Virus record (IMG/VR): IMGVR_UViG_3300042554_001750
DNA from: a virus
Taxonomy: Duplodnaviria; Caudoviricetes
Length of the DNA: 64,000 nucleotides
Reading direction: 5' to 3' (one strand)
Part shown: piece by piece, positions 13,948 to 45,744 of the stretch
Layout of the letters: every line of letters begins with the position of its first letter
Position numbering within the stretch: the first letter of the stretch is position 1
Notes under the pieces: generated by a model
What the model was told of the DNA's origin: nothing
Databases searched by the model: none
Seen by the model: only the letters and a program-made list of their open reading frames with translations
Translations under genes and position numbers: made by a program

Positions 13948-15363
13948 TTATTTTTTGAGCGAATTTAATAGGGCCTTGAGTTTTGCACTTCCTACATCAG
14001 CGACCACTTTCTTAGTTTCAGGCTGAATTTCGCCTGTGTTTGGATCTACAGTTTCTGAAACTACTGTACTCTGAGTTTTAAGCCTATTCATTAGATCATT
14101 GGGACTAGGTTGCGGAGCTTTGTAAGTATTTGCGTCAGGATTAGGATCCGTAATTCTTAATGTTTCTACATTAAATTCCAACTCAATCTTTTGTCCCACA
14201 CCCGAACTACTACGGGTTTTCATTAACTGTAATTGATACTGTCCACGCTCACGCATAGACCTAGAAGTAAAGATACCGAACACATTATCTGCTGTGTTAA
14301 TCTTTGAAATACCACCTGAGATATGACTATGATCAAATTCAATTTCTTCTACAGCACTACGGTTCAACTGACTTGCTGTGACAAATAATACATTTAATTC
14401 TTTAGCCAAGTTACGCAACTCTTCCGATACATATTTGTCTTTCACAAACAAGTCTGAAGGACTGACCTTTGCGCTGACAGGCATGAGCAAGTCCAAATAG
14501 TCTACACACAAAAAGTCAAGTCTCAAACCTGTTTGAATTTGAAGTTCTTTACAATATGCTCTTAAATCATTTACTGTACTTTGAGCAGGCATATATTTGA
14601 TTCGCAAGCCACCTGCTTTCTTTTGTAGCATCTTGACCTTCATTTCAACATTGTCAATGTCTTTGAAGATTTCACGGCTGCTTGTATCTGTCATCATACT
14701 ATCAATACGCATACTACACAAGCCCTCACTAAGTTCTAGTGTTACATACACACCGTTTAATCCTGCTTGTGCCCAGTTAACTGCTAAATTCTGCATGAAC
14801 AAACTCTTGCCTGATCCTGAGCCACCTGCAAAAATTTGAAGTTCACCGCGATTGAAACCACCATATAATTTCTGATCCATACTAGGCCAGCCAGTGCTAT
14901 TCTGTCCATTGTTAGATTTCAATGCCATCAATCGTGCTCTAGGATCAGCAAAGTAATCTGTACCCATATCTTTCTGTAGACTAATCTGCACGGCGTCTTT
15001 GATTAGTTTTTCTACAGGACCATACTCACCCTTTTCAAGTAAGTCTGCTGATTTAAGAATCGCTCTTTCAAGTTCTTGTCGTTTAGTGAATTGTTCAAAT
15101 TCATCTAGAAACCACTGATAGTGCCCATCATCAAGTTCTGAAATGTTTTCAACTTCAACTCCTGTTGATGCCTTTACCTGCGCAGGGTCGGGCATAATGT
15201 TATATTTTTTGCTATGCTCTACTAAAAATTCTGCTACAGGTTTTAATTTGCGGTCAAAATTACTTGGGTTCATGATATTCATGACCCGTGTATACAGTTC
15301 TGCGTTTGTAACCATCATACGCAAAAACAACAACTGCATATCACTATTATATTCTGTGCTCAA
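13948..15363 (-). CDS. Replicative DnaB-family helicase (T4 gp41-like)
   Basis: Walker A GGSGSGKS, VDYLDL, TASQLNR and MKTR motifs. Confidence 0.92.
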   Translation of the reverse strand: MSTEYNSDMQLLFLRMMVTNAELYTRVMNIMNPSNFDRKLKPVAEFLVEHSKKYNIMPDPAQVKASTGVEVENISELDDGHYQWFLDEFEQFTKRQELERAILKSADLLEKGEYGPVEKLIKDAVQISLQKDMGTDYFADPRARLMALKSNNGQNSTGWPSMDQKLYGGFNRGELQIFAGGSGSGKSLFMQNLAVNWAQAGLNGVYVTLELSEGLCSMRIDSMMTDTSSREIFKDIDNVEMKVKMLQKKAGGLRIKYMPAQSTVNDLRAYCKELQIQTGLRLDFLCVDYLDLLMPVSAKVSPSDLFVKDKYVSEELRNLAKELNVLFVTASQLNRSAVEEIEFDHSHISGGISKINTADNVFGIFTSRSMRERGQYQLQLMKTRSSSGVGQKIELEFNVETLRITDPNPDANTYKAPQPSPNDLMNRLKTQSTVVSETVDPNTGEIQPETKKVVADVGSAKLKALLNSLKK

Positions 15364-16321
15364 GTTTTCTCCTCTGTATTTCTATTTTGACTTTACTTGT
15401 AGTTGCACTCTGTAAGATACTTAGTAATGTAGGGAGTTTACCATATTTTACTACTGCATCGTTTACATCTTTTACATCATTGTCCCAATTTGGTATACTA
15501 ACACTATATCCTAATTCTAATGCTTTATCACAAGTACTAAGCCCTGTCTTATCACGATCTGGTACAAAGATAATTTTTCTATTGAGTTGGCTCAATAACT
15601 CAACTTGGTCATCATTAATTGTGTTATGAGTTAACGCACAACCATTGATACTTAATGCGTCAAAAATACCTTCTACCAATATACAAACTTCATATTCAGG
15701 TTTTTGAAAATCAATACCAAACACATATCCTTGCTGTTGCTCATTGATGTATTTAGGTGTCTTGTTGTCTAAGAAGCGACTGGTGTGACCTACAATTTTA
15801 TTTTGATAGGTATATGGAATGATTATTCTATTGCCTTGGCGACCACTTTCATTTGGTGTAATCATGAACGGGTAGTCACTAACATTTATACCCCGTGCCT
15901 GCACATAATCCACATATACTTTGTGTAATGGATTGTTTACATCAAGTAATTCACCTTCGGGAAGAGTATGTTCTTTAAACTTGATTTTCTTTTTATTCTT
16001 TTTAACTTGTACATAAGACAATAAATCTTTATGCTGTAAACTTTCAAGGCTCCAGCGTTGGATTTGCTGTTCGTCTATGCCAGACCACATCAATAATTGT
16101 TTTGTATTTTTGGTTATGCTTTTTCCCAACATGAATCCACACTTGAACCCACAGTTGAAACAATGCATACTCCAATTATCACCGTCCATTCTGATTCCGC
16201 CGCGACTGCGTTTATCGGGTTTGTGACCACGATTATGGCAACACACTGCGTTGAAACTATGCCAACCGCTTTGTGTGAGTTTTTTCTTACCCGGAATAAC
16301 AGACAGGATATCAAACATCAT
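15347..16321 (-). CDS. DNA primase (T4 gp61/DnaG-like)
   Basis: N-terminal Cys/His zinc-binding region (CCH...HCFNC); TOPRIM VEGIFDA and PDRD. Confidence 0.9.
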   Translation of the reverse strand: MMFDILSVIPGKKKLTQSGWHSFNAVCCHNRGHKPDKRSRGGIRMDGDNWSMHCFNCGFKCGFMLGKSITKNTKQLLMWSGIDEQQIQRWSLESLQHKDLLSYVQVKKNKKKIKFKEHTLPEGELLDVNNPLHKVYVDYVQARGINVSDYPFMITPNESGRQGNRIIIPYTYQNKIVGHTSRFLDNKTPKYINEQQQGYVFGIDFQKPEYEVCILVEGIFDALSINGCALTHNTINDDQVELLSQLNRKIIFVPDRDKTGLSTCDKALELGYSVSIPNWDNDVKDVNDAVVKYGKLPTLLSILQSATTSKVKIEIQRRKLEHRI

Positions 16322-17231: not shown

Positions 17232-17612
17232 ATGGCTTTAAACGATTTTTTTAAGAAGTTGAGCGAAAATCATCCCTTTATAACGGTTTGCTCATACGCT
17301 AATCAAGACTATGTAGGAATAGTGCAAAACAGGGATGATACAGTCACCACAATATATGATTACGGAGCCATTGTTGATCAGGAAATCAAGAGTAAATTCT
17401 TAGAACTAGGTGATATTTGGTGGTGGGAAAGCAATAGACTTATACCTATAAATCTATTTTTGAAAGATGAATGGAGTATTTTTAAGCCCTATCTAAGAAC
17501 TTTTAATAATAAAAGTTTAGTAATTTTACACGGGCCCACATGTAGTATGAATGAACTTCACAAACGCCGTAGTAAGAGGCGTAGTATCACGCTAGTCAAG
17601 CGTATTTCCTAA
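17232..17612 (+). CDS. Hypothetical protein, 126 aa
   Basis: Isolated plus-strand ORF, divergent from 16357..17139, TAAATA upstream. Confidence 0.7.
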   Translation: MALNDFFKKLSENHPFITVCSYANQDYVGIVQNRDDTVTTIYDYGAIVDQEIKSKFLELGDIWWWESNRLIPINLFLKDEWSIFKPYLRTFNNKSLVILHGPTCSMNELHKRRSKRRSITLVKRIS

Positions 17613-18176
17613 TTCTACTAATAAATTCATATGTACTGCTACTAGCCACGCATACCCAACCGCGTGTGCTTTCTTAAACTGATATCCGTCAGTGCCACGA
17701 TCCCATATTGTTTTTGCTACTTCAATCCAGGGTAGTCCAATCAGATGCTTTTTTCCCGGGCGAATCAATGCTAGAAACATAGCAAGTCTAGGAATACTAT
17801 TGACTGGTTCGGGCATCTTAGTTAGTGACGGATAATGATTTCCAATATGAATTAGTTTTTCTACAAAGAACGGATCATTCAATTTCTTCCAGTCAGGATC
17901 CCGCATAAGTTCTATCAAATGCTTTTCATCACGGACATGCTTATAAACATGTACATTCAATAAATCCAACTTAAAATAACCCCTCTTTTCTGCGTCTGAA
18001 TAGTCAATAGCTGCCATATCATTTACAGGATCGTAGGGTATTTCTGTAATATGAACTCCAGTAGCATGCTTGCGAATAGGATTTACCTTTAGCATAGCTG
18101 AAGGGATATGTTTTATATGTTGCAGTAATGTACTTCTATCTGCTAAGTCAATGTCTACATCAGTATCAATTTTCAT
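17592..18176 (-). CDS. Miniature family-C (DnaE/Pol III alpha-like) polymerase core, 194 aa
   Basis: Collinear DnaE motifs DVDID, KHATGV, GYFKLDLL, ALIRPG and GYQFKKAHAVGY. Confidence 0.75.
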   Translation of the reverse strand: MKIDTDVDIDLADRSTLLQHIKHIPSAMLKVNPIRKHATGVHITEIPYDPVNDMAAIDYSDAEKRGYFKLDLLNVHVYKHVRDEKHLIELMRDPDWKKLNDPFFVEKLIHIGNHYPSLTKMPEPVNSIPRLAMFLALIRPGKKHLIGLPWIEVAKTIWDRGTDGYQFKKAHAVGYAWLVAVHMNLLVELGNTLD

Positions 18177-18763
18177 AATTGTATTGTTTTTATGCCACGC
18201 AATAACATTTCAACGCTAACTGCTACCAATATAAGACCCATTAATCTTTCCATAGCAATTAAAAATCTATTACCCAATAGATGTTGTATTCTATCACCTA
18301 TTAATAAAGCAATCATACTTATGGTAATACCTACTCCCATCGCTGCCACCCATACCCAAAACTCATCGGGTTGCTGACTAACTAATAACATCACAGTAGC
18401 TAACGCACTAGGTCCTGCAATCAATGGTATTGCCAATGGCACTATAAATGGTTCATGGTCCAATATTTCTTCTTCAACATTAGAATCATTAGGAAATACC
18501 ATTTTTATAGCAATAAGAAATAAAATAACTGCGCCTGCTAATTGGAGACTAGCATTACTTAATCCCAATGCACTTAAAAAGTGCTGACCCACAATCATAA
18601 AAAGAAATAGAATACCGAAAGCAATAAAATGCTCACGCACGATAATCCAACTTCTTTTTTCTACGCTATACTTTTTTAGTGTACTACTAAAGATGGGAAA
18701 ATTTCCAAACGGATCAAATATAAGTATCAGTAGCATCAATGCTGAAACAAATGTGTAGGTCAT
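18173..18763 (-). CDS. marC: MarC/NAAT-family integral membrane protein
   Basis: Six hydrophobic segments; DPFGN, AGAVILF, IVPLAIPLIAGP and ERLMGLIL signatures. Confidence 0.88.
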   Translation of the reverse strand: MTYTFVSALMLLILIFDPFGNFPIFSSTLKKYSVEKRSWIIVREHFIAFGILFLFMIVGQHFLSALGLSNASLQLAGAVILFLIAIKMVFPNDSNVEEEILDHEPFIVPLAIPLIAGPSALATVMLLVSQQPDEFWVWVAAMGVGITISMIALLIGDRIQHLLGNRFLIAMERLMGLILVAVSVEMLLRGIKTIQL

Positions 18764-19317
18764 GACATAAAACCTGCCTTCATTAATTTCATGTAAGCCT
18801 GTTGTACAACAATTGCCTGTCGTTCAGCATCTTCTACTGCTTTGTGACTAGTCTTGTGTCCACCATCTTTTAATTTTACTCCGGCAATCTCATACAATGT
18901 TCTAGTATCACGAACAGTATAGAAAGGCCAGGGTATAGGATTAGGATAATCAGTTAATGTTTGACGCATGCCTGTTTCGCATGCGACCACATCAAATGCC
19001 GCTCCGTTACTCCAAACTGCTCTACGATTCCAACAAAACTTATAAAGTTGTTCCATACATTCTTTAAATGAAATACGATCCCTATCTCCCAATGCTTCTT
19101 CCATTGCTTCAGGACTTTGTGTACTCCACCAACGCAATGTATCTTCGTTGATAACTCTGTTGTGTATTTCTGTCTGATCCTCAATTGTAGGACGCAACTC
19201 TAACCGTTCTATAACACCTTGACCCTTAGGATCAAATCTCACAGCCCCGATGGTAAGTATAACACAATAAGGGCTTGTGTCAAGCGTCTCCAGATCAACC
19301 ATTATATCATTTGCCAT
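18760..19317 (-). CDS. DEDDh 3'-5' exonuclease (Rv2179c/RNase T-like)
   Basis: MVDLETL, WSNGAAFD, RDTRT and H.AVEDA motifs. Confidence 0.85.
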   Translation of the reverse strand: MANDIMVDLETLDTSPYCVILTIGAVRFDPKGQGVIERLELRPTIEDQTEIHNRVINEDTLRWWSTQSPEAMEEALGDRDRISFKECMEQLYKFCWNRRAVWSNGAAFDVVACETGMRQTLTDYPNPIPWPFYTVRDTRTLYEIAGVKLKDGGHKTSHKAVEDAERQAIVVQQAYMKLMKAGFMS

Positions 19318-23301: not shown

Positions 23302-24759
23302 TCACTTATAATTAAGTTTTTCAATATCAAATGGATAACTTGCCTCTTTGTAAAAGGCTTTTCGTTGGCTCAAATGCCGTTTGGCAAACTTGCAACTACT
23401 TGTTATGTCCCAGATTTGTACGAAGTCCTTGTCCTCAGCTTTTCTAATGCCTCGCCCAATAGATTGTATAACCCTAACAAAGCTTTTTCCGGGCTCCAAA
23501 AGAACCAGATTAAAAATCCGAGGAATATTAATACCCACAGCGGCCACACCGTAAGTCGCCACAATAATCTTATCACTACTCGTCGCCACCTCATCATATT
23601 CTTCTTTTCTTTCAGTTAATTTTGTTTCGCCACTGACAAATACTGCATTAGGTAATCGGTCTACTAATTCTTTGCCGGCTGCTACACGGTCAACAAGGAT
23701 TAAAGTATTACCACTGTCTTTTATTTTTAAGATTAGCTCGGCGATTGTGTCTAATCTTTTCTTATCTTCTAATAGATGTTTTAGCTCACTTTGATAGTTT
23801 GTAAACTCTACGCCATCTTGTAACTGCACAATGTTTACATGACATTGTGCCAACACACCTTTGTCTTGTAATTCGCTGGCACTTAGTTTTCCTACAACGG
23901 ACCCGATACTAACAAACAATGCTTGTGCTTCAAACTTTGCTTTGGGAATAGTTCCAGTAAGACCCCAACGAATAGGTACATGACTGAATACGCTAGTCAT
24001 TAGTGTTTTAAGTGCGTCTGCCTTTGCTTGATGCACCTCGTCTACAATGATACAAACAACATCTTCAATAAACTCACCGATAGGAATTTCTGCTTCACCT
24101 GCTTTAGTTTTCTTCAACATATTGTTGAGACTTTGCCAAGTACAAATTGTGTGTGTCTTGCCTATTTCTTTTCTATCACCGAAGTAGACACCTACATCTA
24201 ATCCTACATTGCGATAATCTTCTTCTGTTTGTGTAACAAGTGACTTGTTAGGAACGATTACGATACTGCGACCATAGTTTTGTATGCTATAACTCAATGC
24301 TGCCGTTGTAATTGTTTTACCTGCACCTGTTGCTACTTCCTGAATACACTGCGGATTCTCTAAGAAACGGTTGATAACTTCTACTTGATAGTCACGCAAC
24401 TTAATAGGCTGACCCTCTAATGGATGCTTCTTGGGCCATACATGTTGAGAAAATAGATCCTCGGACACTTGAGCAAAATTGAATGTTGTGGAGTATTCGC
24501 GCAAGTCCTCTAACTGAATGTCATATCCTGCCTGATCAAGTAAGGGCAAAATCTCAGGCAATAGATTAAGATAAGTGCTACCACCTAAACTAAAATAACT
24601 TACCTTACCATTCCAACGACCTAACCTAACCGCGGGCAAATACCTTGCACCAGGAATTTCGTACTCAAACATATGAAGTAACGTTTTTCTGTCTCCTAAA
24701 TCCAAGTTTTCTATTTTACAATTAACTTCATCCTTAACAATAATTTTACAAGTTTTCAT
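23302..24759 (-). CDS. uvsW: SF2 DNA helicase, UvsW-like
   Basis: LRDYQ, ATGAGKT, DEVH, GLTGT, GINIP and QSIGRGIR. Confidence 0.9.
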   Translation of the reverse strand: MKTCKIIVKDEVNCKIENLDLGDRKTLLHMFEYEIPGARYLPAVRLGRWNGKVSYFSLGGSTYLNLLPEILPLLDQAGYDIQLEDLREYSTTFNFAQVSEDLFSQHVWPKKHPLEGQPIKLRDYQVEVINRFLENPQCIQEVATGAGKTITTAALSYSIQNYGRSIVIVPNKSLVTQTEEDYRNVGLDVGVYFGDRKEIGKTHTICTWQSLNNMLKKTKAGEAEIPIGEFIEDVVCIIVDEVHQAKADALKTLMTSVFSHVPIRWGLTGTIPKAKFEAQALFVSIGSVVGKLSASELQDKGVLAQCHVNIVQLQDGVEFTNYQSELKHLLEDKKRLDTIAELILKIKDSGNTLILVDRVAAGKELVDRLPNAVFVSGETKLTERKEEYDEVATSSDKIIVATYGVAAVGINIPRIFNLVLLEPGKSFVRVIQSIGRGIRKAEDKDFVQIWDITSSCKFAKRHLSQRKAFYKEASYPFDIEKLNYK

Positions 24760-36567: not shown

Positions 36568-39500
36568 TTAAAACTGTATAACTGGTGATGTGGGCGGTGT
36601 GAAGTTAGCTGTATAACGGGCTACACCGTTTGTTACTCGTAAGTCATCTATGTAGCCGTTGAATTCAGTGAAATAACTTTCTCCCCCGTACCCTACATAG
36701 AGTGGTTGAGTGGTAAATGTAATATTTGTGCTATTTGACCCAGTGCCGGATGCCACCCCGTTTATATACCAAGTCCAAGTGCTTCCGTTACGCACAAACG
36801 CAAGGTGAGTCCAGGTATTTGCAGTGATCGCACTAGTGGCTGTTGTGTAAATATCCGAACCGCCTGTCAATCCGTTATAATGAATACTGGGTGTCCCTGC
36901 ATTAAGGTGCATCACAAATTTGGGCACACCACCAGGTCCGCCACTTAGTGCATAAAAACCGCGTATTCCGGCAATGCTACTTGGGTATAACCAGGCTTCA
37001 AAAGTAAAACTTCCAGTACCTAAATTATTATTTACTGAGAATGGTGAGACCAAGTAATCGCCAGTGCCATCAAACGACATACTGCTATTACCGTATTTCT
37101 TGATTACTCCAGTGGTACTAGCATTGCCCAGTGTTTCGTAAGTGGCCATCATGGCACTGTCGTAAATGGCTGCACTGGTACCGTTAGCCAATATCAGGGT
37201 GTTTTGTATAGGCTGTAATGGTGCCACTGGTGGTGCAAAAGACGCAGTATAAAGAACTGTGCCTCTAATGTATCTTAGATTAGATATGTATCCAGTCCAA
37301 AACTTTGCAGGATTTAAAGTGCTACCAATATAAAAATTTTGAGTTGTTTGATCATAATAAGTTCCTGTAGCGGAACTGCCAGACGCAACGCCATTTATAT
37401 AGTAACTGATAGTATTATCAGACCTAGTTACAACAACGTGGTTCCATTGATTTATGCGTACAACAGAAGAACCCGAAGATGTTCCAACGGATGCTCCGTC
37501 TCCATTATTATCTGACTGTACAGTTCCATTGGTGTTAACCATGAGACTTAATCCTCTGGAATTGCCGTTAAATGTACCAAAAAACGCACTTTGGGCTGCT
37601 AGACTGGTTGGATATAACCAAACCTCTATAGTCCAATTACCATTGGTAAGATTAAGTACTGGTGATAAAACACTAACTAAGTAATCCCCAGTACCATCAA
37701 AATACATGCTGCCACCGTAATTTGCCACACTGTAAGTAGCATTGCTACCAGTGGTACTAGTCCAGCCAAATGGGTTGAATTGAGTGGGCTGGCTGTTACC
37801 AAAGACGGTTATGGCGAAGTTGTTGGTGCTATTATCAACGAATGTGGCGTTTTGGCATGTTAGTAGACTTGTACCTGACACTGCGGTTAGTGGTGCAGTT
37901 GGGGGCGTGAATGCTGCTGTGTAAACTGCTGTGCCTTTGACCAAACGCACATTGGATATGTATCCTGTACATACACCTGTTACACTTCCGTTGAAAAATT
38001 CAGCTCCTATATACGTTGTTCCCGAAAATGTAGCCGATGAAGTCCAAGTACCCAGTGAAGCTCCGTTTAAATAGAGAGTCACTGTTGTTCCTGCCCGAAC
38101 CACAGCAACATGTGACCAAGTTCCAACTGCAGGTAATGTTGCACTACTGATACGGTTAGCTCCATTGGAATACACTATTAGTGCAGATCCTGTACTACCT
38201 ATATAAACTTCAATCCCCGTAGAAGTAAAAGAATCTCCAAGAGTAAAGAAAAAGTTGTTGCCGCTTGCAGAACGGTAAACCCAAAACTCAATAGTAAAGT
38301 CTGCATTTAGTGTAGTGGCAGCATTATTTGGCGCTGTCAAATAATCCCCAGTGCCATCAAAGTAACCACTATAACTTGTGGGAGTAGTCAACACTGGGTT
38401 GAAGGGGTTGAAGCGTTGTACGCTAACATCACCGTTTCTTGTTATAGTAAAGTTGTTACCACTGTCATCTATGAATCTATTATCAGCACAAGTTAGTAGG
38501 CTGGTGTTAGCGATTGGTGTGAGAGGTGCTGTGGGTGGCGTGAACGCTGCGGTATATACTGCTGTACCTCTTACTATGCGTAAATTTGAAATATAACCAT
38601 TGTATCCAGTATTTTGCACCGAACCTAAATTTAAGGTAGAACCCGAGGGCCCCTGTGGGGTACCAGATTTTGATACTGAAAATGCTTGAACCCCGTTAAT
38701 GTAACCCTTAAGGGTGGAATTTGAATTAGTGTAAACCATGGCAACATGAGTCCAGGTGTTCAAAGCAACAGTAGAAGTACTGACTGCGTTAGTTACTCCA
38801 GCACCATTATAGTAATAAAAATATAAGTTACCCGATGAATTTGTACCAAAACTCCAGTATGTATCTGCACTAGTTGGTAAACCATATGCAACTTGTAATG
38901 GCAAACTATTAGTAGCACTCTGGGCGTTTACTCTATTGAAAATCCACATTTCAATAGTGTAATCTGTGTCCCACCACTGGACTGTAGATGCACTGTAAGG
39001 CATTGTTAAATAATCTCCAGTGCCATCAAAATAATTGCTCCAGCCACCACCATAGGGCGTAAAACTGCCCTGTGTTGTATTACCATTTCTAGTAATTAAA
39101 AAGTTACTGGCACTACTATCCAAAAACATATTATTGTTGTTGGGCTGATTGTTTTGTAGTGTTAGTAGTTGTGTGTTTGCAACTGCGGTTAATGGTGCTG
39201 TGGGCACAGTTATAGTGGTTTGCGTAGGGTTATATACTGCTGTGCCCTTTACAAATCTTACATTTGATATGTAGCCAGTAACACCCTGTGCGACCGTTTC
39301 ATTATTGCCTATGCGAAGCTCACCTTGAGCAAAACTTGTACTATTAGTAACAGTACCGCCGTCTGTGCGAGAACCATTGATCCAGAGTGACATAGTAGTT
39401 CCGCTTCTTGATGCTGCAATATGTACCCATTGATTCAATGGCATATTGATGTTAGAAGTCAATAAATCGGCAACACCATAACTTCTAATTACAACCTTAC

Positions 39501-41097
39501 TGCCAGTAACATAAACAATCAAGCCGTTGGTTGCGTTTATCAAATAGAAAACTGGATTGCTGGCCAGACTCGAGGTGTATGCCCAGAACTCAACCGTGAA
39601 ATCCGCCGGTGCTGCAAATGCTGTATTACTGGCCAGTGAAAGATAATCACCAGTGCCATCAAAATATCCCGAACCATAAGTGCTGTAGGCACTGAGAGGT
39701 ATGAATGGATCAAAACCACTTATTGATACACTACCGCTGACCGTTACGGTGAAATTATTTGTGCTATTGTCAATGAATCTATTGCTCTGGCATGTGAGCA
39801 ATTGTGTATTTGTGATGGTTGTAAGCGGAGTTGTACTTGGGGTAAAGTTTCCAGTGTATACAATTGTACCACGGACATATCTGAGATTGCTTATAAATCC
39901 CTTCCAGCCCAGTGTTGATATACCAAAGTTACCAAATTGACCAATAGTCAAGGGTTGATTTGATGCAAAGATTGAGGCTGCGTCCGTGGTTGACCCAGTG
40001 GCGACACCATTCACATAAAATGTATAGACACCAGCACCAGTACGTGTAAAGGCAAAATGATACCATTGTCCCGCTGTTACAGTAAATGAGTTTGAATATA
40101 TAAATGCGTCTGTGCTTCCATTGGTCGTGTAGTAAACTTGTAGTTTTCCGTTTGCCAAACTAAAGCCCCATGCCCGTTGCCCGGTGGCCACTTGTGACAC
40201 AATGTAATATTGATCACTTGTGTTATATGATTCTAGATAACAGAATGCTTCAACAGTTATGTCAGTATCCAAATTCCAGGCTGCATTGTCAGGAACAGTA
40301 AGGGCATTAGTAGATGTAAAATAATTACTGTAATATCCGGGCGTATATGGACCAAAGTTATTTGGTCTTGTATCACCAATCACACTAACAGCAAAATTGT
40401 TTGTGCTGGCATCACTAACGAATGTGCTGGATGGATTACTAGCACTCAACAATGTGGTTACATATTCAAAGTTAGCATCGCCAGCAGCGATAGTAATACT
40501 AAATGCTCGGGGACTTTCTTGCGCTTGGCCGTCTATGGCTTCAACAGTAAAATTGTAGGTGGTTTCGCTAGTAATACCAGTAACTGTGCCACTCAACAAC
40601 CCACCGCTAGATAAACTTAGTCCGGGAGGTAATGTACTACCCGCCTGTAATGCATAAGTCACCGGGGCATCTCCCGTAGCACTGAACTGTATGCTAATTG
40701 CACTATCCACTTGGCCACCAGTGAGTGTGCTGCCAGTGACCCATGTGGGATCACCACTGTATGTTAAACCGTTTACTAATATTGCTACGCCACCATTGCT
40801 CACAGTAACATACACAATATATGTTCCGGCTGCTTGTGCGGGTACTTGCACATTTAAGGTTGTGCTGTTTACAAAAGTAACACTGGTTGCTGTCACACTG
40901 CCTATGACCACCTGAGTTCCAGCAGTAAAGTTAGTTCCGGTAATTTTAATATATCCACCACTAGTGCTTACAGCAGTATCGTCTTTGACAACATAACCAC
41001 TGGTTGTAATCTGAACTTGCGTGATAGTGGGGGCAGTTGAACTCAGTGCTGTGATAGTCGCAGGGCTAAGGTTGGTAAGGTCAATATAGGTTGGCAT
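36568..41097 (-). CDS. Large fibre/adhesin: IPT/TIG + Ig-like (He_PIG) + six LamG/concanavalin-A modules
   Basis: ITGTNF...VTFVNSTTL; LPPGLSLSSGGLLSGT; six units with (Y/S)FDGTGDYL...W.H.A..R...LY.NG...GYISNLR. Confidence 0.8.
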   Translation of the reverse strand: MPTYIDLTNLSPATITALSSTAPTITQVQITTSGYVVKDDTAVSTSGGYIKITGTNFTAGTQVVIGSVTATSVTFVNSTTLNVQVPAQAAGTYIVYVTVSNGGVAILVNGLTYSGDPTWVTGSTLTGGQVDSAISIQFSATGDAPVTYALQAGSTLPPGLSLSSGGLLSGTVTGITSETTYNFTVEAIDGQAQESPRAFSITIAAGDANFEYVTTLLSASNPSSTFVSDASTNNFAVSVIGDTRPNNFGPYTPGYYSNYFTSTNALTVPDNAAWNLDTDITVEAFCYLESYNTSDQYYIVSQVATGQRAWGFSLANGKLQVYYTTNGSTDAFIYSNSFTVTAGQWYHFAFTRTGAGVYTFYVNGVATGSTTDAASIFASNQPLTIGQFGNFGISTLGWKGFISNLRYVRGTIVYTGNFTPSTTPLTTITNTQLLTCQSNRFIDNSTNNFTVTVSGSVSISGFDPFIPLSAYSTYGSGYFDGTGDYLSLASNTAFAAPADFTVEFWAYTSSLASNPVFYLINATNGLIVYVTGSKVVIRSYGVADLLTSNINMPLNQWVHIAASRSGTTMSLWINGSRTDGGTVTNSTSFAQGELRIGNNETVAQGVTGYISNVRFVKGTAVYNPTQTTITVPTAPLTAVANTQLLTLQNNQPNNNNMFLDSSASNFLITRNGNTTQGSFTPYGGGWSNYFDGTGDYLTMPYSASTVQWWDTDYTIEMWIFNRVNAQSATNSLPLQVAYGLPTSADTYWSFGTNSSGNLYFYYYNGAGVTNAVSTSTVALNTWTHVAMVYTNSNSTLKGYINGVQAFSVSKSGTPQGPSGSTLNLGSVQNTGYNGYISNLRIVRGTAVYTAAFTPPTAPLTPIANTSLLTCADNRFIDDSGNNFTITRNGDVSVQRFNPFNPVLTTPTSYSGYFDGTGDYLTAPNNAATTLNADFTIEFWVYRSASGNNFFFTLGDSFTSTGIEVYIGSTGSALIVYSNGANRISSATLPAVGTWSHVAVVRAGTTVTLYLNGASLGTWTSSATFSGTTYIGAEFFNGSVTGVCTGYISNVRLVKGTAVYTAAFTPPTAPLTAVSGTSLLTCQNATFVDNSTNNFAITVFGNSQPTQFNPFGWTSTTGSNATYSVANYGGSMYFDGTGDYLVSVLSPVLNLTNGNWTIEVWLYPTSLAAQSAFFGTFNGNSRGLSLMVNTNGTVQSDNNGDGASVGTSSGSSVVRINQWNHVVVTRSDNTISYYINGVASGSSATGTYYDQTTQNFYIGSTLNPAKFWTGYISNLRYIRGTVLYTASFAPPVAPLQPIQNTLILANGTSAAIYDSAMMATYETLGNASTTGVIKKYGNSSMSFDGTGDYLVSPFSVNNNLGTGSFTFEAWLYPSSIAGIRGFYALSGGPGGVPKFVMHLNAGTPSIHYNGLTGGSDIYTTATSAITANTWTHLAFVRNGSTWTWYINGVASGTGSNSTNITFTTQPLYVGYGGESYFTEFNGYIDDLRVTNGVARYTANFTPPTSPVIQF

Positions 41098-41142: not shown

Positions 41143-44100
41143 TTAGAATTGTATTACTGGGCTAGTGGGTGGTGTGAAGTTTGCAGTATAACGGGCCACG
41201 CCTCGGGTAATACGCACATCATCTAAATAACCATTTAAAGCTGCGTTATTAGTGGAACCGATAGTAAAGGGTATGTCTGTGCCTGATACCGGTGATCCTA
41301 CTATAGATGCAGTAGCTGATGAAACTCCGTTAATGTAAATAGCTAATGCTCCCCCATTGTTAACAAAAGCCAAATGATACCACTGTCCTGTTGCCAAAGC
41401 AGTGGTAGTTGTGAACGATTGTTGTGATCCCCTCCAGTAATAGAACCGTACTGTTCCGCCTGTGATAGGACCAAATGACCAATAATTACTAGAAGTAGTT
41501 GGATTCATGTTTCCGATTACTACGCTTTCGTTATTGCCGCCCTGGGTGAACGCATTCGCATAAATCCAATATTCTAAAGTAAAGTTACCTGAATACCAAT
41601 TCAAGAATGGTGCAAAATTATTTGACAAACTCAAATAATCTCCGGTGCCATCAAACGATAAACTGCTATTTCCGTACTTCTTGATTACCCCAGTAGTACT
41701 AGAATTGCCCAGTGTTTCGTATGTTGTGATCATGGCACTATCGTAGATGGCTGCACTGGTGCCGTTGACTTGTAAAACGGCGTTTGCATTGAATGACAAT
41801 GGTGCTACTGGTGGGGCGAAGTTACTGGTATACAGTGCTTGTCCTCTTAGTATACGAAGATTTGTTATGTATCCGTTAATGCTGCCACCGCTGGGCACAG
41901 AACCTACTCGCAATGCTCCTTGAGTTGTATAGTTTTGATCTGTAGTTGTGTTTGAACCAACTAGTACTCCGTTTTTGTACATAATGAATGTTGATCCACT
42001 TTTCATGATTGCCACATGAGTCCATTGATTTAACACGATGTTTGTTGGGTCTTGAACATTAATACTTCCAGCAGAAGTAAACCAGGATAATCTACTGTTA
42101 AAGAATGCCAATGCCCAACGGTTATTATACCCACCACTGGACGCAGCATCAGTCCAGGTTGTTGCCAAGGGAGCATAATTTGAAGGACTTGATGATAAGT
42201 AAAACCAGCATTCAATGGTAAAGTCGCCCGAAGATCCTAGGGTAAATGCTGGGTCGCTTGGCGTTAATAAAAAGTCACCAGTGCCATCAAAATACATGCT
42301 GCCACCGTAATTTGCGACACTGTAGGCTGCATTACTGCCAGTGGTACTAGTCCAGCCAAATGGGTTGAACTGAGTGGGCTGGCTGTTGCCGTTGGCAGTG
42401 ATCGTGAAGTTGTTGGTGCTGTTATCTACGAATGTGGCGTTTTGTAATGTCAATAAACTTGTATTGGCAATAGCAGTTAATGGTGTAGTACTTGGGGTAA
42501 AATTACTGGTATAGACTGCGGTGCCGTTGACCACTCTAAAGTTGCTAATGTATCCATTCACACTATGTGAAGCACTAAAGCCACTGCCACCTATTCTAAT
42601 TGTCCCAGTAGTAGTGCCAAAATTTGTTGAGTTGGTGGTGGTTGAACCCACCTGGGAGCCGTTCACGAATAATCTCAAAGATGTTCCTGATCTACTAACT
42701 GCTATGTGATTCCAGGCATTGGCGACTACCGCAGTAGTTGTAACTGCAACTATCGCGGCATTTCTTGCATCAAATTTTAATTGAGTTGCGCTCCAGTCGT
42801 AGCCAAATTCAGGAAAAGTTCCAGTATCATCCGGTCTTAGGAAAGCAGAGAAAGTGCCAGTGTTTGCCATGTAAGCCCAGAGTTCAATTGTAAAATCACT
42901 GGTGCCGAAGGCCAGCGAACTACCACCAGTATATGATAAACTGTCACCATTACCATCAAAGTAACCACTATAACTTGTGGGTGTGGTCAATGCGGGATTG
43001 AATGGATTAAAGCGTTGAATGCTTACATCACCGTTTCTTGTTATAGTAAAGTTGTTACCACTATCATCTACGAATCTGTTATCGGCACAAGTTAGCAATC
43101 TTGTATTAGCAATAGGTGTGAGCGGTGCAGTGGGTGGAGTAAAGGCAGTAGTGTAAACTGCTGTACCAATAACTATTCTATGATTTGAAATGTAGCCTGT
43201 AAAGTTAAATCCGCTTGGCATGCCCCCAATATAATTGGGTTGTGAAGTACTAAAAATTGAACTGGATCCCACATTAGTTGTGGTTCCTGCTACACCGTTT
43301 ATATATGGAGTAACTGTTGATCCATTTCTAACCAATGCTATATGATACCATGTATTTGCTGCAATATTTCCAAACGCAACACCAGAGGCAAGGTTCCAAG
43401 TAGTACCGTTGGAACTGAGATAATAATTTAATGTTCCGTTAGATGCAGTATAGATCGCCCAGTTAATTGTTGAGCCATCATATCCACAAAATGGTTGTTG
43501 TCCTGAAGCCACAGAATTAAAGTAAACCCATGCTTCAATGGTAAAATCACTATTGCTCAAGTATAAAGAACTACTGAAGGAAATACTCAAATAGTCACCA
43601 GTACCATCAAAATAATTACTCCAGCCACCACCATAGGGACTAAAACTTCCCTGTGTGGTGTTGCCGTTGCGGGTGATCAAGAAGTTATTGGTACTACTAT
43701 CCAAGAACATTGAATTGTTATTGGGCTGGTTGTTTTGTAGTGTTAGTAATTGAGTGTTTGCAACTGCGGTTAGTGGGGCAGCGGGTGGTGTAAATGAACT
43801 TGTATAAACTGCGGTACCTTTAACCAATCTGAAATCAGCCATGTAACCTGTATATAGTGTTTGACCGCTTTCAAATCCAATGTTTAGTGACCCTACAAAA
43901 TTAGTTGAATTTGAAGCTGTGCCCACGCTGACACCATTGACATATAATGTTATGGTATTACTGTTGCGTACTACTGCCACATGGTTCCAGGCATTGATGA
44001 CCACCGCATTATTTGCTGTAATCAGCAGGCTACCGCCATCAAACAAAGTAAAGCTATTTGTTGTATAAAGGAATAACCGTAAATTCGTGCCAACTGATCC

Positions 44101-45744
44101 GTACGAAAACAGATTTATATATCCTCCTGGGGCTGCGGCTATGTTGTACCAAAACTCTATAGTAAAGTTTCCTGAACCAGGTTGCAGATTTGCCTGGCCG
44201 GCCGGTAATGACAAATAATCCCCAGTGCCATCAAAATATCCTGAACCATAAGTGCTGTAAGCACTGACTGGTGCAAATGGATCAAACCCTGATACCAGTG
44301 TATCACCGTTGCGAGTAATAGTGAAGTTATTTGTGCTTGCGTCAATGAATCTGTTGCTTTGACATGTTAGCAGGGCCGTTTGTGTGCCTGTAATTACAGA
44401 GATATTTGTGCCTGAAGATTGTGTTGCAGCCAATGGTGAAGTTGGAGGTATAAACGATCCTGTGTAGACAGCGACACCTTTGACAATACGAAGGTTTGAT
44501 ATGTATCCGTTTACTTGCCTTGACACCAATGCGTTAGCGATATATAACAAACTAGCAGTCCCTGATGTTTGATTCCAGGAATTTGCTGTTGTTGATCTTT
44601 CTACACCATTTAAGTAAATTTTTGTAGTGCCTGATGATCTAACCAGTGCAACGTGATTCCAAGCATTCAATGAAATTAATGCGGCCGCTGTTTCTGTAAC
44701 AGGAGAATTAGGACTGTAACTTCCTGCATAAAATGTAATTGCCCCTGCATTCGTGAATCCAAATGAAATAGCATCAGTTGAGTATGTTCCTGCACCTTCT
44801 CTTACATCAACTACATTGTTAAATTCCTGAGGATAAGATACTAAATAAGCCCAAAACTCAATTGTGCAATTACTAGTTCCCAAAGCTAGAGTAGATCCAT
44901 ACGGAACTGTTAAAGAATCTCCGCTTGTATCAAAATATGCACTATAATATCCCGGTGTGTAGGGGCCAAAACTATTGGGTCGTGTATCGCCAAACACACT
45001 AACAGCAAAATTGTTTGTACTGGCATCAGTGACGAATGTACTACTGGGGTTAGCAGCACTCAACAATGTAGTAACATACTCAAAAAATTGATCACTTGCT
45101 GTAATCGTAATACTAAATGTTCTGGGACTTTCCTGAGCCTGAGCATCAATGGCTTCTATAGTAAAGTTGTAAGTGGTTTCAACTGTGATTCCAGTTACAG
45201 TGCCACTCAACAACCCACCACTGGTTAAAGTTAGTCCTGCGGGCAAACTACTGCCCGCTTGAAGTGCATATGTAACTGGAGCATCACCAGTAGCACTCAA
45301 TTGTATGCTAATTGCACTATCTACTTGCCCACTGGTTAATGTGCTACCAGTAACCCATGCGGGATCACCACTATAAGTCAGTCCATTAACCATGATAGCC
45401 ACGCTGCCAGTGTTTATGGTCACATAAACCACATATGTGCCAGCTGCCAGGGCTGGCACTTGAACATTCAGAGTGGTGCTATTTACAAAACCCACGCTAG
45501 TTGCAGGTGTACTACCAATTACAACTTGCGAACCAGCAGTAAAGTTAGTCCCAGTAATCTTGATATAACCACCACTGGTACTAACGGCTGTGTCATCTTT
45601 GACTACATACCCACTAGTGGTAATTTGTATTTGTGTGATTGTGGGAACTGCACTACCTTGCAAAGCATCAATTGTGCTCTGAGCAAGGTTAGTTGTCAGA
45701 ATCGTGTTACTTTGAATATTGGTGCTGGCTATTCTGGTAGTCAT
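41143..45744 (-). CDS. Large fibre/adhesin paralog: IPT/TIG + Ig-like + six LamG modules
   Basis: Same architecture as 36568..41097 and identical C-terminus VARYTANFTPPTSPVIQF. Confidence 0.8.
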   Translation of the reverse strand: MTTRIASTNIQSNTILTTNLAQSTIDALQGSAVPTITQIQITTSGYVVKDDTAVSTSGGYIKITGTNFTAGSQVVIGSTPATSVGFVNSTTLNVQVPALAAGTYVVYVTINTGSVAIMVNGLTYSGDPAWVTGSTLTSGQVDSAISIQLSATGDAPVTYALQAGSSLPAGLTLTSGGLLSGTVTGITVETTYNFTIEAIDAQAQESPRTFSITITASDQFFEYVTTLLSAANPSSTFVTDASTNNFAVSVFGDTRPNSFGPYTPGYYSAYFDTSGDSLTVPYGSTLALGTSNCTIEFWAYLVSYPQEFNNVVDVREGAGTYSTDAISFGFTNAGAITFYAGSYSPNSPVTETAAALISLNAWNHVALVRSSGTTKIYLNGVERSTTANSWNQTSGTASLLYIANALVSRQVNGYISNLRIVKGVAVYTGSFIPPTSPLAATQSSGTNISVITGTQTALLTCQSNRFIDASTNNFTITRNGDTLVSGFDPFAPVSAYSTYGSGYFDGTGDYLSLPAGQANLQPGSGNFTIEFWYNIAAAPGGYINLFSYGSVGTNLRLFLYTTNSFTLFDGGSLLITANNAVVINAWNHVAVVRNSNTITLYVNGVSVGTASNSTNFVGSLNIGFESGQTLYTGYMADFRLVKGTAVYTSSFTPPAAPLTAVANTQLLTLQNNQPNNNSMFLDSSTNNFLITRNGNTTQGSFSPYGGGWSNYFDGTGDYLSISFSSSLYLSNSDFTIEAWVYFNSVASGQQPFCGYDGSTINWAIYTASNGTLNYYLSSNGTTWNLASGVAFGNIAANTWYHIALVRNGSTVTPYINGVAGTTTNVGSSSIFSTSQPNYIGGMPSGFNFTGYISNHRIVIGTAVYTTAFTPPTAPLTPIANTRLLTCADNRFVDDSGNNFTITRNGDVSIQRFNPFNPALTTPTSYSGYFDGNGDSLSYTGGSSLAFGTSDFTIELWAYMANTGTFSAFLRPDDTGTFPEFGYDWSATQLKFDARNAAIVAVTTTAVVANAWNHIAVSRSGTSLRLFVNGSQVGSTTTNSTNFGTTTGTIRIGGSGFSASHSVNGYISNFRVVNGTAVYTSNFTPSTTPLTAIANTSLLTLQNATFVDNSTNNFTITANGNSQPTQFNPFGWTSTTGSNAAYSVANYGGSMYFDGTGDFLLTPSDPAFTLGSSGDFTIECWFYLSSSPSNYAPLATTWTDAASSGGYNNRWALAFFNSRLSWFTSAGSINVQDPTNIVLNQWTHVAIMKSGSTFIMYKNGVLVGSNTTTDQNYTTQGALRVGSVPSGGSINGYITNLRILRGQALYTSNFAPPVAPLSFNANAVLQVNGTSAAIYDSAMITTYETLGNSSTTGVIKKYGNSSLSFDGTGDYLSLSNNFAPFLNWYSGNFTLEYWIYANAFTQGGNNESVVIGNMNPTTSSNYWSFGPITGGTVRFYYWRGSQQSFTTTTALATGQWYHLAFVNNGGALAIYINGVSSATASIVGSPVSGTDIPFTIGSTNNAALNGYLDDVRITRGVARYTANFTPPTSPVIQF

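Follow-up and report, generated by a model that had tools for sequence, protein, structure and literature searches.

The 194-residue protein under study is encoded on the minus strand of the window (the 64,000-nt stretch of DNA analyzed here, which derives from an uncultured freshwater lake jumbo phage) and is almost certainly the C-terminal chain of the split minimal DNA polymerase III alpha of group 2.2 jumbo phages. The best explanation of its features, and one that we regard as quite probable, is that it provides the C-terminal chain of a two-chain minimal family C nucleotidyltransferase in this T4-related group of phages. The split arrangement has been known since the sequence analysis of Iyer, Anantharaman, Krishnan, Burroughs, and Aravind (2021, Viruses 13:63, PMC7824862), and, going by what that paper says of the enzyme, the gene of the window is a further copy, from an uncultured freshwater phage. 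The two chains are referred to below as the C-half and the N-half.

The C-half gene is a complete ORF of 194 codons and, as the preliminary description had it, is coupled to its neighbors at both ends: its start codon lies in an ATGA overlap with the stop codon of the upstream gene, which encodes a MarC-family membrane protein, and its stop codon lies inside a convergent ORF, with an overlap of 21 nt (Table 1). The replication genes that had been named close by were also recovered, the primase and the DnaB-type helicase from synteny and a DnaB_C match and the DEDDh exonuclease from Pfam; the window thus holds UvsW-type, primase, and DnaB-type helicase genes. The order of UvsW, followed further on by the C-half, the convergent small gene, a virion protein, the primase, and the helicase, is conserved as a block in RaK2, PA5oct, and Phosso. 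The exonuclease adjoins the C-half only in the clade of the window, being ~5 kb away in RaK2, and none is annotated beside the C-half in Phosso or PA5oct. A single identical 252-nt contig (18082-18333, depth ~2, DNA carry-over possible) was found in one metatranscriptome run and extends across the MarC/C-half junction.

Table 1. Features of the C-half gene, its motifs, and its neighbors in the window
Feature	Position	Strand	Evidence or equivalence
C-terminal half of split minimal Pol III alpha-like polymerase, 194 aa	17592..18176	-	ORF; phrog_11778; PDB profile; AF2; VIA
D6-V-D8-I-D10, metal-binding DxD strand at the extreme N terminus	18147..18161	-	Invariant in 79/79; E. coli D401/D403/D405
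K36-H37-A-T-G40-V (residues 36-41), strand after the deleted thumb	18054..18071	-	H37 and G40 99% conserved; strand 35-42 in the model
K69-L-D71, third catalytic aspartate	17964..17972	-	K69 and D71 invariant; E. coli K553, D555
ALIRPG fingers motif, residues 136-141	17754..17771	-	R139 and P140 invariant; E. coli R639-P640-G641
GYQFKKAHAVGY fingers motif, residues 164-175	17652..17687	-	K168, H171, and A176 at least 90% conserved; E. coli 753-764 GYGFNKSHSAAY
126-aa gene with basic tail, overlapping the 3' end of the C-half	17232..17612	+	phrog_11637, E 1.2e-31
MarC-family membrane protein gene, coupled (ATGA) to the C-half start; context only	18173..18763	-	PF01914, E 1.3e-47
DEDDh 3'-5' exonuclease (Rv2179c-like), same coupled gene string	18760..19317	-	PF16473, E 2e-30; phrog_255 'exonuclease'
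Primase gene	15347..16321		Syntenic position relative to annotated genes of relatives
DnaB-type helicase gene	13948..15363		Precomputed DnaB_C Pfam match; synteny with relatives
UvsW-type helicase gene	23302..24759		Precomputed Pfam match

Comparison of the family profile with the PDB returned nine distinct sequences, all of them DNA polymerase III alpha (from E. coli, M. tuberculosis, and T. aquaticus), at E values of 1.3e-5 to 2.4e-4. The alignment to E. coli alpha is collinear, whereby DxDxD falls on residues 401-405, KxD on 553-555, RP on 639-640, and F167...A176 on F756...A765. All five motifs of the preliminary description could be located in the translated ORF at the residues it had assigned, and its equation of the catalytic aspartates with E. 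coli D401/D403/D555 agrees with the family-profile alignment, which puts D6, D8, and D71 there. Used as a single sequence, the C-half gave chance-level matches only in the PDB (E ~1), and in Pfam no family was matched at E up to 1, the gathering score of PF07733 (DNA_pol3_alpha) not being reached.

Residue conservation was examined in an alignment of 79 diverse representatives, each 30-54% identical to the C-half of the window. The residues invariant in all 79 are D6, D8, D10, K69, D71, R139, and P140, with H37, G40, W96, A132, K142, K168, H171, and A176 conserved in at least 90%; the chain ends 18 residues past the F.K.H..YA motif. As judged from these alignments of sequence, the motifs of the C-half are not chance matches.

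The AlphaFold (AF2) model of the C-half has a pLDDT of 95.3 and a pTM of 0.89. By VIA-align, it could be superposed on PolC over 190 of its 194 residues (Z 9.8, rmsd 3.1, chain positions 968-1302), on Taq alpha (Z 9.3, 459-843), on M. tuberculosis DnaE1 (Z 8.8, 417-813), and on E. coli alpha (Z 8.5, 397-787). The next unrelated fold scored only Z 3.4, leaving the PolC/DnaE palm, matched over ~190 residues at Z 8.5-9.8, as the sole strong structural match. In a Foldseek search of the PDB, the top 14 matches were likewise all Pol III alpha; these were weak (E 3e-3, TM ~0.4, with none reaching E 0.001), since the C-half has lost half of the DnaE span.

The extent of this deletion can be read from the alignments, in which the 194 residues of the C-half cover ~390 residues of E. 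coli alpha. Between DxD and KxD lie 63 residues, compared with about 150 in E. coli alpha (152 when counted from D403 to D555, the equivalents of D8 and D71), and a thumb-sized segment is therefore missing, which bears out the thumb reduction described previously; in the model, just a short helix and a pair of strands separate the DxD strand from that of the third aspartate. From RP to F.K.H, the distance is 28 residues compared with 117 in E. coli alpha. The PHP, HhH, and OB domains had also been described as missing, and no Pfam match of any kind to them was found in the ORF, nor was any match to PHP (PF02811) or HHH_6 (PF14579) obtained at E up to 1 in five related genomes, the control genomes being positive. 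For the PF17657 finger model, the relatives gave a sub-threshold match only, which falls inside the Phosso C-half itself.

Full-length membership of phrog_11778, annotated 'DNA polymerase', was found at E 2.4e-55, with residues 2-188 aligned to profile positions 4-193 of 197. Among cultured jumbo phages, 96 records contain a C-half copy at 40-47% identity, including those of the RaK2 group, PA5oct, Atu_ph07, Phosso, GAP32, and a Vibrio phage; a few of the cultured-phage copies are annotated as DnaE-like. A large protein collection holds ~5,540 relatives of similar length, and across the 364 clusters formed at 50% identity both length and start point are constant. The identical protein is present on many freshwater metagenome contigs, one of which, 116.9 kb in length, is 99.995-100% identical to the window; no near-identical DNA was found in the cultured-phage collection. 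Pairwise dN/dS among 79 IMG/VR copies (933 pairs) is ~0.12 at the median and 0.38 at most. These values point to a real and widespread gene that is under strong purifying selection.

Only five residues precede DxD in the C-half, and the palm elements that contact the phosphates of the nucleotide (the strand ahead of DxD, the GRGS loop, and a helix) are absent from it. In family representatives the start lies 1-30 residues ahead of DxD, and in nearly all of the 79 aligned full-length ones the motif is reached within a few residues. By motif scan, no GRGS-type loop was found in the ORF or anywhere in the window, and no N-half homologue could be detected in the window by motif scan or tblastn. 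Stepwise exact-protein look-ups along metagenome contigs led to a 168-aa ORF (L100:15610-16116) with a GVGRGSS motif and a PF07733 match of 35.8 bits, for which the cut-off is 23.9 bits. Contig L100 shares 97.6% identity with another contig, which matches the window at 100%, and it is from the L100 strain that the N-half is known; a look-up of its exact protein gave no record on the contig equal to the window. The position of the ORF corresponds to ~23 kb before the start of the window; the two genes share a strand, with the N-half ~40.6 kb downstream, and in this lineage the N-half gene sits among morphogenesis genes.

The same two-gene layout was found in relatives. In Sinorhizobium phage Phosso, the N-half is a 177-aa ORF identified by PF07733, with the GRGS loop and the following helix at its end, and lies 224 kb from the C-half. 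Four IMG/VR relatives that are at least 95% complete have exactly one N-half each, of 168-174 aa and ~45 kb from the C-half; in most genomes both genes are on one strand, the C-half being the upstream one by 30-45 kb. For obligate partners, such a separation in different gene neighborhoods is unusual.

The N-half model has a pLDDT of 88.6, and only its residues 70-168 match DnaE and PolC (M. tuberculosis DnaE1 305-413 at Z 10.4, PolC 821-964, and Taq 294-455). On every structural template, only 3-4 residues separate the end of the N-half from the start of the C-half; the break therefore has the GS-loop helix on one side and the DxD strand on the other and cuts the core sheet of the Pol-beta-like palm. 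The N-half stops right after the EFLK helix, and neither half has an intein-sized extension, so that the halves must remain separate chains.

Several observations connect the two halves. In the phage collection, the counts of C-half and N-half by host genus are matched for Escherichia (34/34), Pseudomonas (11/11), Erwinia (8/8), Salmonella (8/8), Xanthomonas (4/4), and Yersinia (4/4), and stand at 11/10 for Klebsiella, for which some records are partial. A fused form (P0167), consisting of the N-half and the C-half joined by a 10-residue linker in one protein of 375 aa, is encoded on the 2.4-kb metagenomic contig L106; PF07733 matches this protein across the junction, at 59.6 bits. An exhaustive search of cluster representatives yielded this as the only fused form, and a word-based search for longer, fused relatives of the C-half found none. 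When the two chains were modeled as a complex, the ipSAE was 0.91 in three runs and 0.01 for the best of 3 controls, in a benchmark in which 58 of 80 solved complexes, and 2 of 110 mismatched pairs, attained that mark, although this high score may reflect likeness to solved DnaE structures. Contacts agreed to at least 97% between runs, the partner pLDDT was at least 90, and residues 133-135 of the N-half are predicted to lie against residues 9-11 of the C-half as adjacent strands of one sheet.

The C-half carries the DxD strand (D6 and D8), the third carboxylate (D71 with K69), and the reduced fingers (R139-P140, K168/K169, and H171); the first palm strand, the phosphate-binding GRGS loop, and the next helix are on the N-half. 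Because the break falls inside the beta-sheet of the palm core, neither chain would form an active site alone, and association of both would rebuild one palm. The assembled enzyme would have ~360 residues, without thumb, PHP, clamp-binding, HhH, or OB parts, and could act beside the family B replicase as a distributive, template-directed DNA polymerase, with tasks such as repair, the filling of gaps, or short primer extension. The break point, the invariant residues, the co-occurrence, the fused form, and the purifying selection make obligate association with the N-half and nucleotidyl transfer likely. Template-directed DNA synthesis is plausible, given that the family C fingers motifs are retained and that the gene lies among replication genes. 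Since the thumb and most DNA-contacting parts are missing, stable binding of a primer-template, and with it template dependence, is uncertain; the loss of the thumb, the DNA-holding parts, and the clamp-binding parts argues for a distributive enzyme at best, and template-independent activity is possible.

Small enzymes of the Pol-beta fold are often template-independent, and the assembled chains could be an active nucleotidyltransferase that does not copy a template but acts as a terminal transferase or tailing enzyme, modifies primer ends, or makes a nucleotide product that serves in conflict with the host. The deletion of the thumb (63 residues in place of about 150 in E. coli alpha) would fit such an enzyme, as would the absence, from the ORF and from the relatives alike, of clamp-binding, HhH, and OB parts, and a complete family B replicase is already present in every near-complete relative (~915 aa in 4 of 4). 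There would, however, be less reason for an enzyme without a template to keep the fingers motifs specific to family C (RPG and F.K.H..YA), which are invariant or retained, and the gene stays in a conserved block with UvsW, primase, and the replicative helicase as far as RaK2, PA5oct, and Phosso. On balance, we hold a non-templated activity to be unlikely, and a templated two-chain polymerase remains the favored reading.

The main reading of the preliminary description had been of the 194-aa protein alone as a complete, radically minimized polymerase or nucleotidyltransferase, an interpretation to which the three carboxylates and the fingers motifs, all on one chain, and the confident folding of the C-half by itself in silico lend some weight. 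That the protein is a real, intact, and selected derivative of the family C core was correct; its palm, however, is incomplete, given that the GRGS loop with its strand and helix is absent from the C-half and carried by the N-half. The N-half moreover accompanies the C-half in all 4 near-complete relatives searched and shares its phage genera, a fused form exists, and the break point is fixed, with nearly all of the 79 representatives beginning within a few residues of DxD, all of which makes a stand-alone enzyme very improbable. The same description had offered, as another option, one subunit of a multi-protein polymerase, which proved the right choice, except that the partner is not a nearby hypothetical protein but the 168-aa protein ~40 kb away, outside the window. 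Even less credible is a non-catalytic remnant, whether a decaying fragment or a structural or decoy protein that keeps the DnaE shape: the C-half does correspond to only a fragment of a far larger, ancestor-like protein and is without a Pfam match, but its invariant positions are exactly the catalytic and nucleotide-contacting ones, dN/dS is ~0.12, length and start are constant across the 364 clusters at 50% identity, and the identical protein recurs on many independent metagenome contigs.

The convergent gene that overlaps the 3' end of the C-half recurs at this position in RaK2, PA5oct, and Phosso (34-47% identical), and its product ends in a basic tail of the KRxKRR type. On contig L106, this gene is still present after the fused gene. 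A search of the ESM Atlas with the 126-aa ORF gave no usable match. The gene is a conserved companion of the C-half and a candidate member of the polymerase system; the DEDDh exonuclease is, similarly, a possible proofreader for the split polymerase. A more elaborate arrangement, which we think rather improbable, is that the two chains and the 126-aa protein, perhaps with the exonuclease, make up a self-contained second polymerase machine. The basic protein would here replace the thumb or the DNA-holding parts, and with the C-half supplied from the string of replication genes and the N-half from the morphogenesis region, assembly would time the activity to late infection, for example for gap filling before packaging.

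Compared with bacterial DnaE and PolC (PDB 2hnh, 2hpi/3e0d, 5lew, and 3f2b), the phage enzyme has in common the Pol-beta-like palm, the three carboxylates, and the RPG and FNKSH..Y fingers motifs, and both phage halves superpose on the palm and the proximal fingers. The bacterial enzymes comprise 1,100-1,400 residues in one chain, whereas the phage enzyme has ~360 in two and is without PHP, thumb, distal fingers, clamp-binding motif, HhH, and OB; their GS-type phosphate-binding loop is on the same polypeptide as the carboxylates, whereas in the phage it is on the separate N-half. A break at the same place, between FERFLN and PDIDTD, is found in the DnaE of Cellulophaga phage phi13:1, which is encoded by two genes (gp038 and gp039); that enzyme is full-size and its genes are adjacent, whereas the enzyme of the window's phage is minimal and its genes are far apart. 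Cyanobacterial DnaE is also naturally split between two genes, is full-size, and has its halves spliced by a split intein.

The closest known system is the split minimal polymerase III alpha of group 2.2 jumbo phages, described from sequence by Iyer et al. (2021). In its passages on this enzyme, that paper (PMC7824862) describes two chains from genes that lie far apart, of which the N-terminal one binds NTP and the C-terminal one binds Mg and the template, proposes cooperation with the family B enzyme in one-strand synthesis or repair, and offers the split enzyme as a picture of the ancestral form of the bacterial replicase. As far as those passages go, the C-half of the window belongs to the same family over its full length (phrog_11778, the N-half family being phrog_11127), with the same break, the same distant genes, and the same company of UvsW and gp41/gp61-type helicase and primase, a family B polymerase being present in the near-complete relatives; nothing essential differs. 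The 375-aa fused form, the mostly fixed gene order, and the convergent companion do not appear in the same passages. Literature searches returned no later or experimental work on the split enzyme beyond the 2021 sequence analysis.

An active enzyme would raise the question of why hundreds of jumbo phage lineages, already equipped with a replicase of the T4 type, should maintain a second and stripped polymerase that is strongly selected. Were the arrangement of a second polymerase machine to hold true, it would be the smallest known family C polymerase and a natural case of activity controlled by the timing of subunits. If the two chains are active, they would constitute by far the smallest family C polymerase, at ~360 residues in two chains, and would show which parts of the bacterial replicase catalysis truly needs.

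In most of the genomes compared (records of cultured jumbo phages and G001, G003, G004 and G005), the gene for the C-terminal polymerase chain (C-half) lies 30–46 kb upstream of that for the NTP-binding chain (N-half), on the same strand. This placement is found, for example, in the window clade, PA5oct, RaK2, GAP32, Serratia phage BF, and a Vibrio phage, so that gene order is the reverse of protein order. For Atu_ph07 and Phosso, 180–224 kb separate the two halves. The N-half gene is neighboured by morphogenesis genes, tail-fibre-like and Cpn10-like among them.

Coordinates of the features described
Feature	Location	Strand	Remarks
126-aa gene	window 17232-17612	+	convergent with polymerase half, 21-nt overlap
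MarC-family integral membrane protein gene	window 18173-18763	-	PF01914, E 1e-47
ORF, about 1,500 aa	window 36568-41097	-	virion and baseplate PHROG families
ORF, about 1,500 aa	window 41143-45744	-	virion and baseplate PHROG families
N-half	L100:15610-16116		contig of a 97.6% identical strain
N-half-like protein, 170 aa	L190:2638-3150		Alishewanella phage Slickus01; GVGRGSS motif
P0167, unsplit 375-aa mini-polymerase	L106:1066-2193	+	one metagenomic contig
phi13:1 gp038/gp039, full-size DnaE as two adjacent genes	L189:2014-5614		Cellulophaga phage

Residues 1–69 of the N-half returned no DnaE or PolC counterpart in a fold search. In the predicted complex of the two chains, this region contacts C-half residues 43–51 and 65–68, and it may be a phage-specific addition that would stabilize the two-chain palm. 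The N-half-like protein of Slickus01 is encoded in a genome of 141 kb, far under jumbo size.

Within the window, the polymerase half belongs to a translationally coupled string that comprises a PhyH dioxygenase, a small ORF, an exonuclease, MarC, and the polymerase half itself. The MarC-family gene had no match in a PHROG search and looks like a cellular acquisition. Such a string is an unusual location for a membrane protein gene. A single 252-nt contig from a lake metatranscriptome run, identical to window positions 18082–18333, covers the junction between MarC and the polymerase half; it gives a faint hint of transcription, with DNA carry-over as another possible source.

The 126-aa gene is the sole opposite-strand gene within a long co-directional block, and its protein has a basic C-terminal tail. 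Its convergent and overlapping layout is conserved in Phosso, PA5oct, and RaK2 (34–47% identity), and on contig L106 a counterpart follows the fused gene in the same arrangement. Pfam and Atlas searches with the 126-aa protein yielded no lead. Elsewhere in the window, the two giant ORFs are neighbours that match identical PHROG families and carry six repeated stretches each; a giant structural protein made up of repeats seems to have been duplicated in tandem here.

Of the 150 representatives listed, P0167 alone is fused; it joins the N-half to the C-half, in that order, through a 10-residue linker. In the DnaE of phi13:1, the break falls between FERFLN and PDIDTD, which is also where the mini-polymerase is divided. 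The phi13:1 enzyme is full-size and encoded by two adjacent genes, the first of which continues for ∼45 additional residues beyond the break. The shared break point may represent a recurrent split site of family C polymerases.
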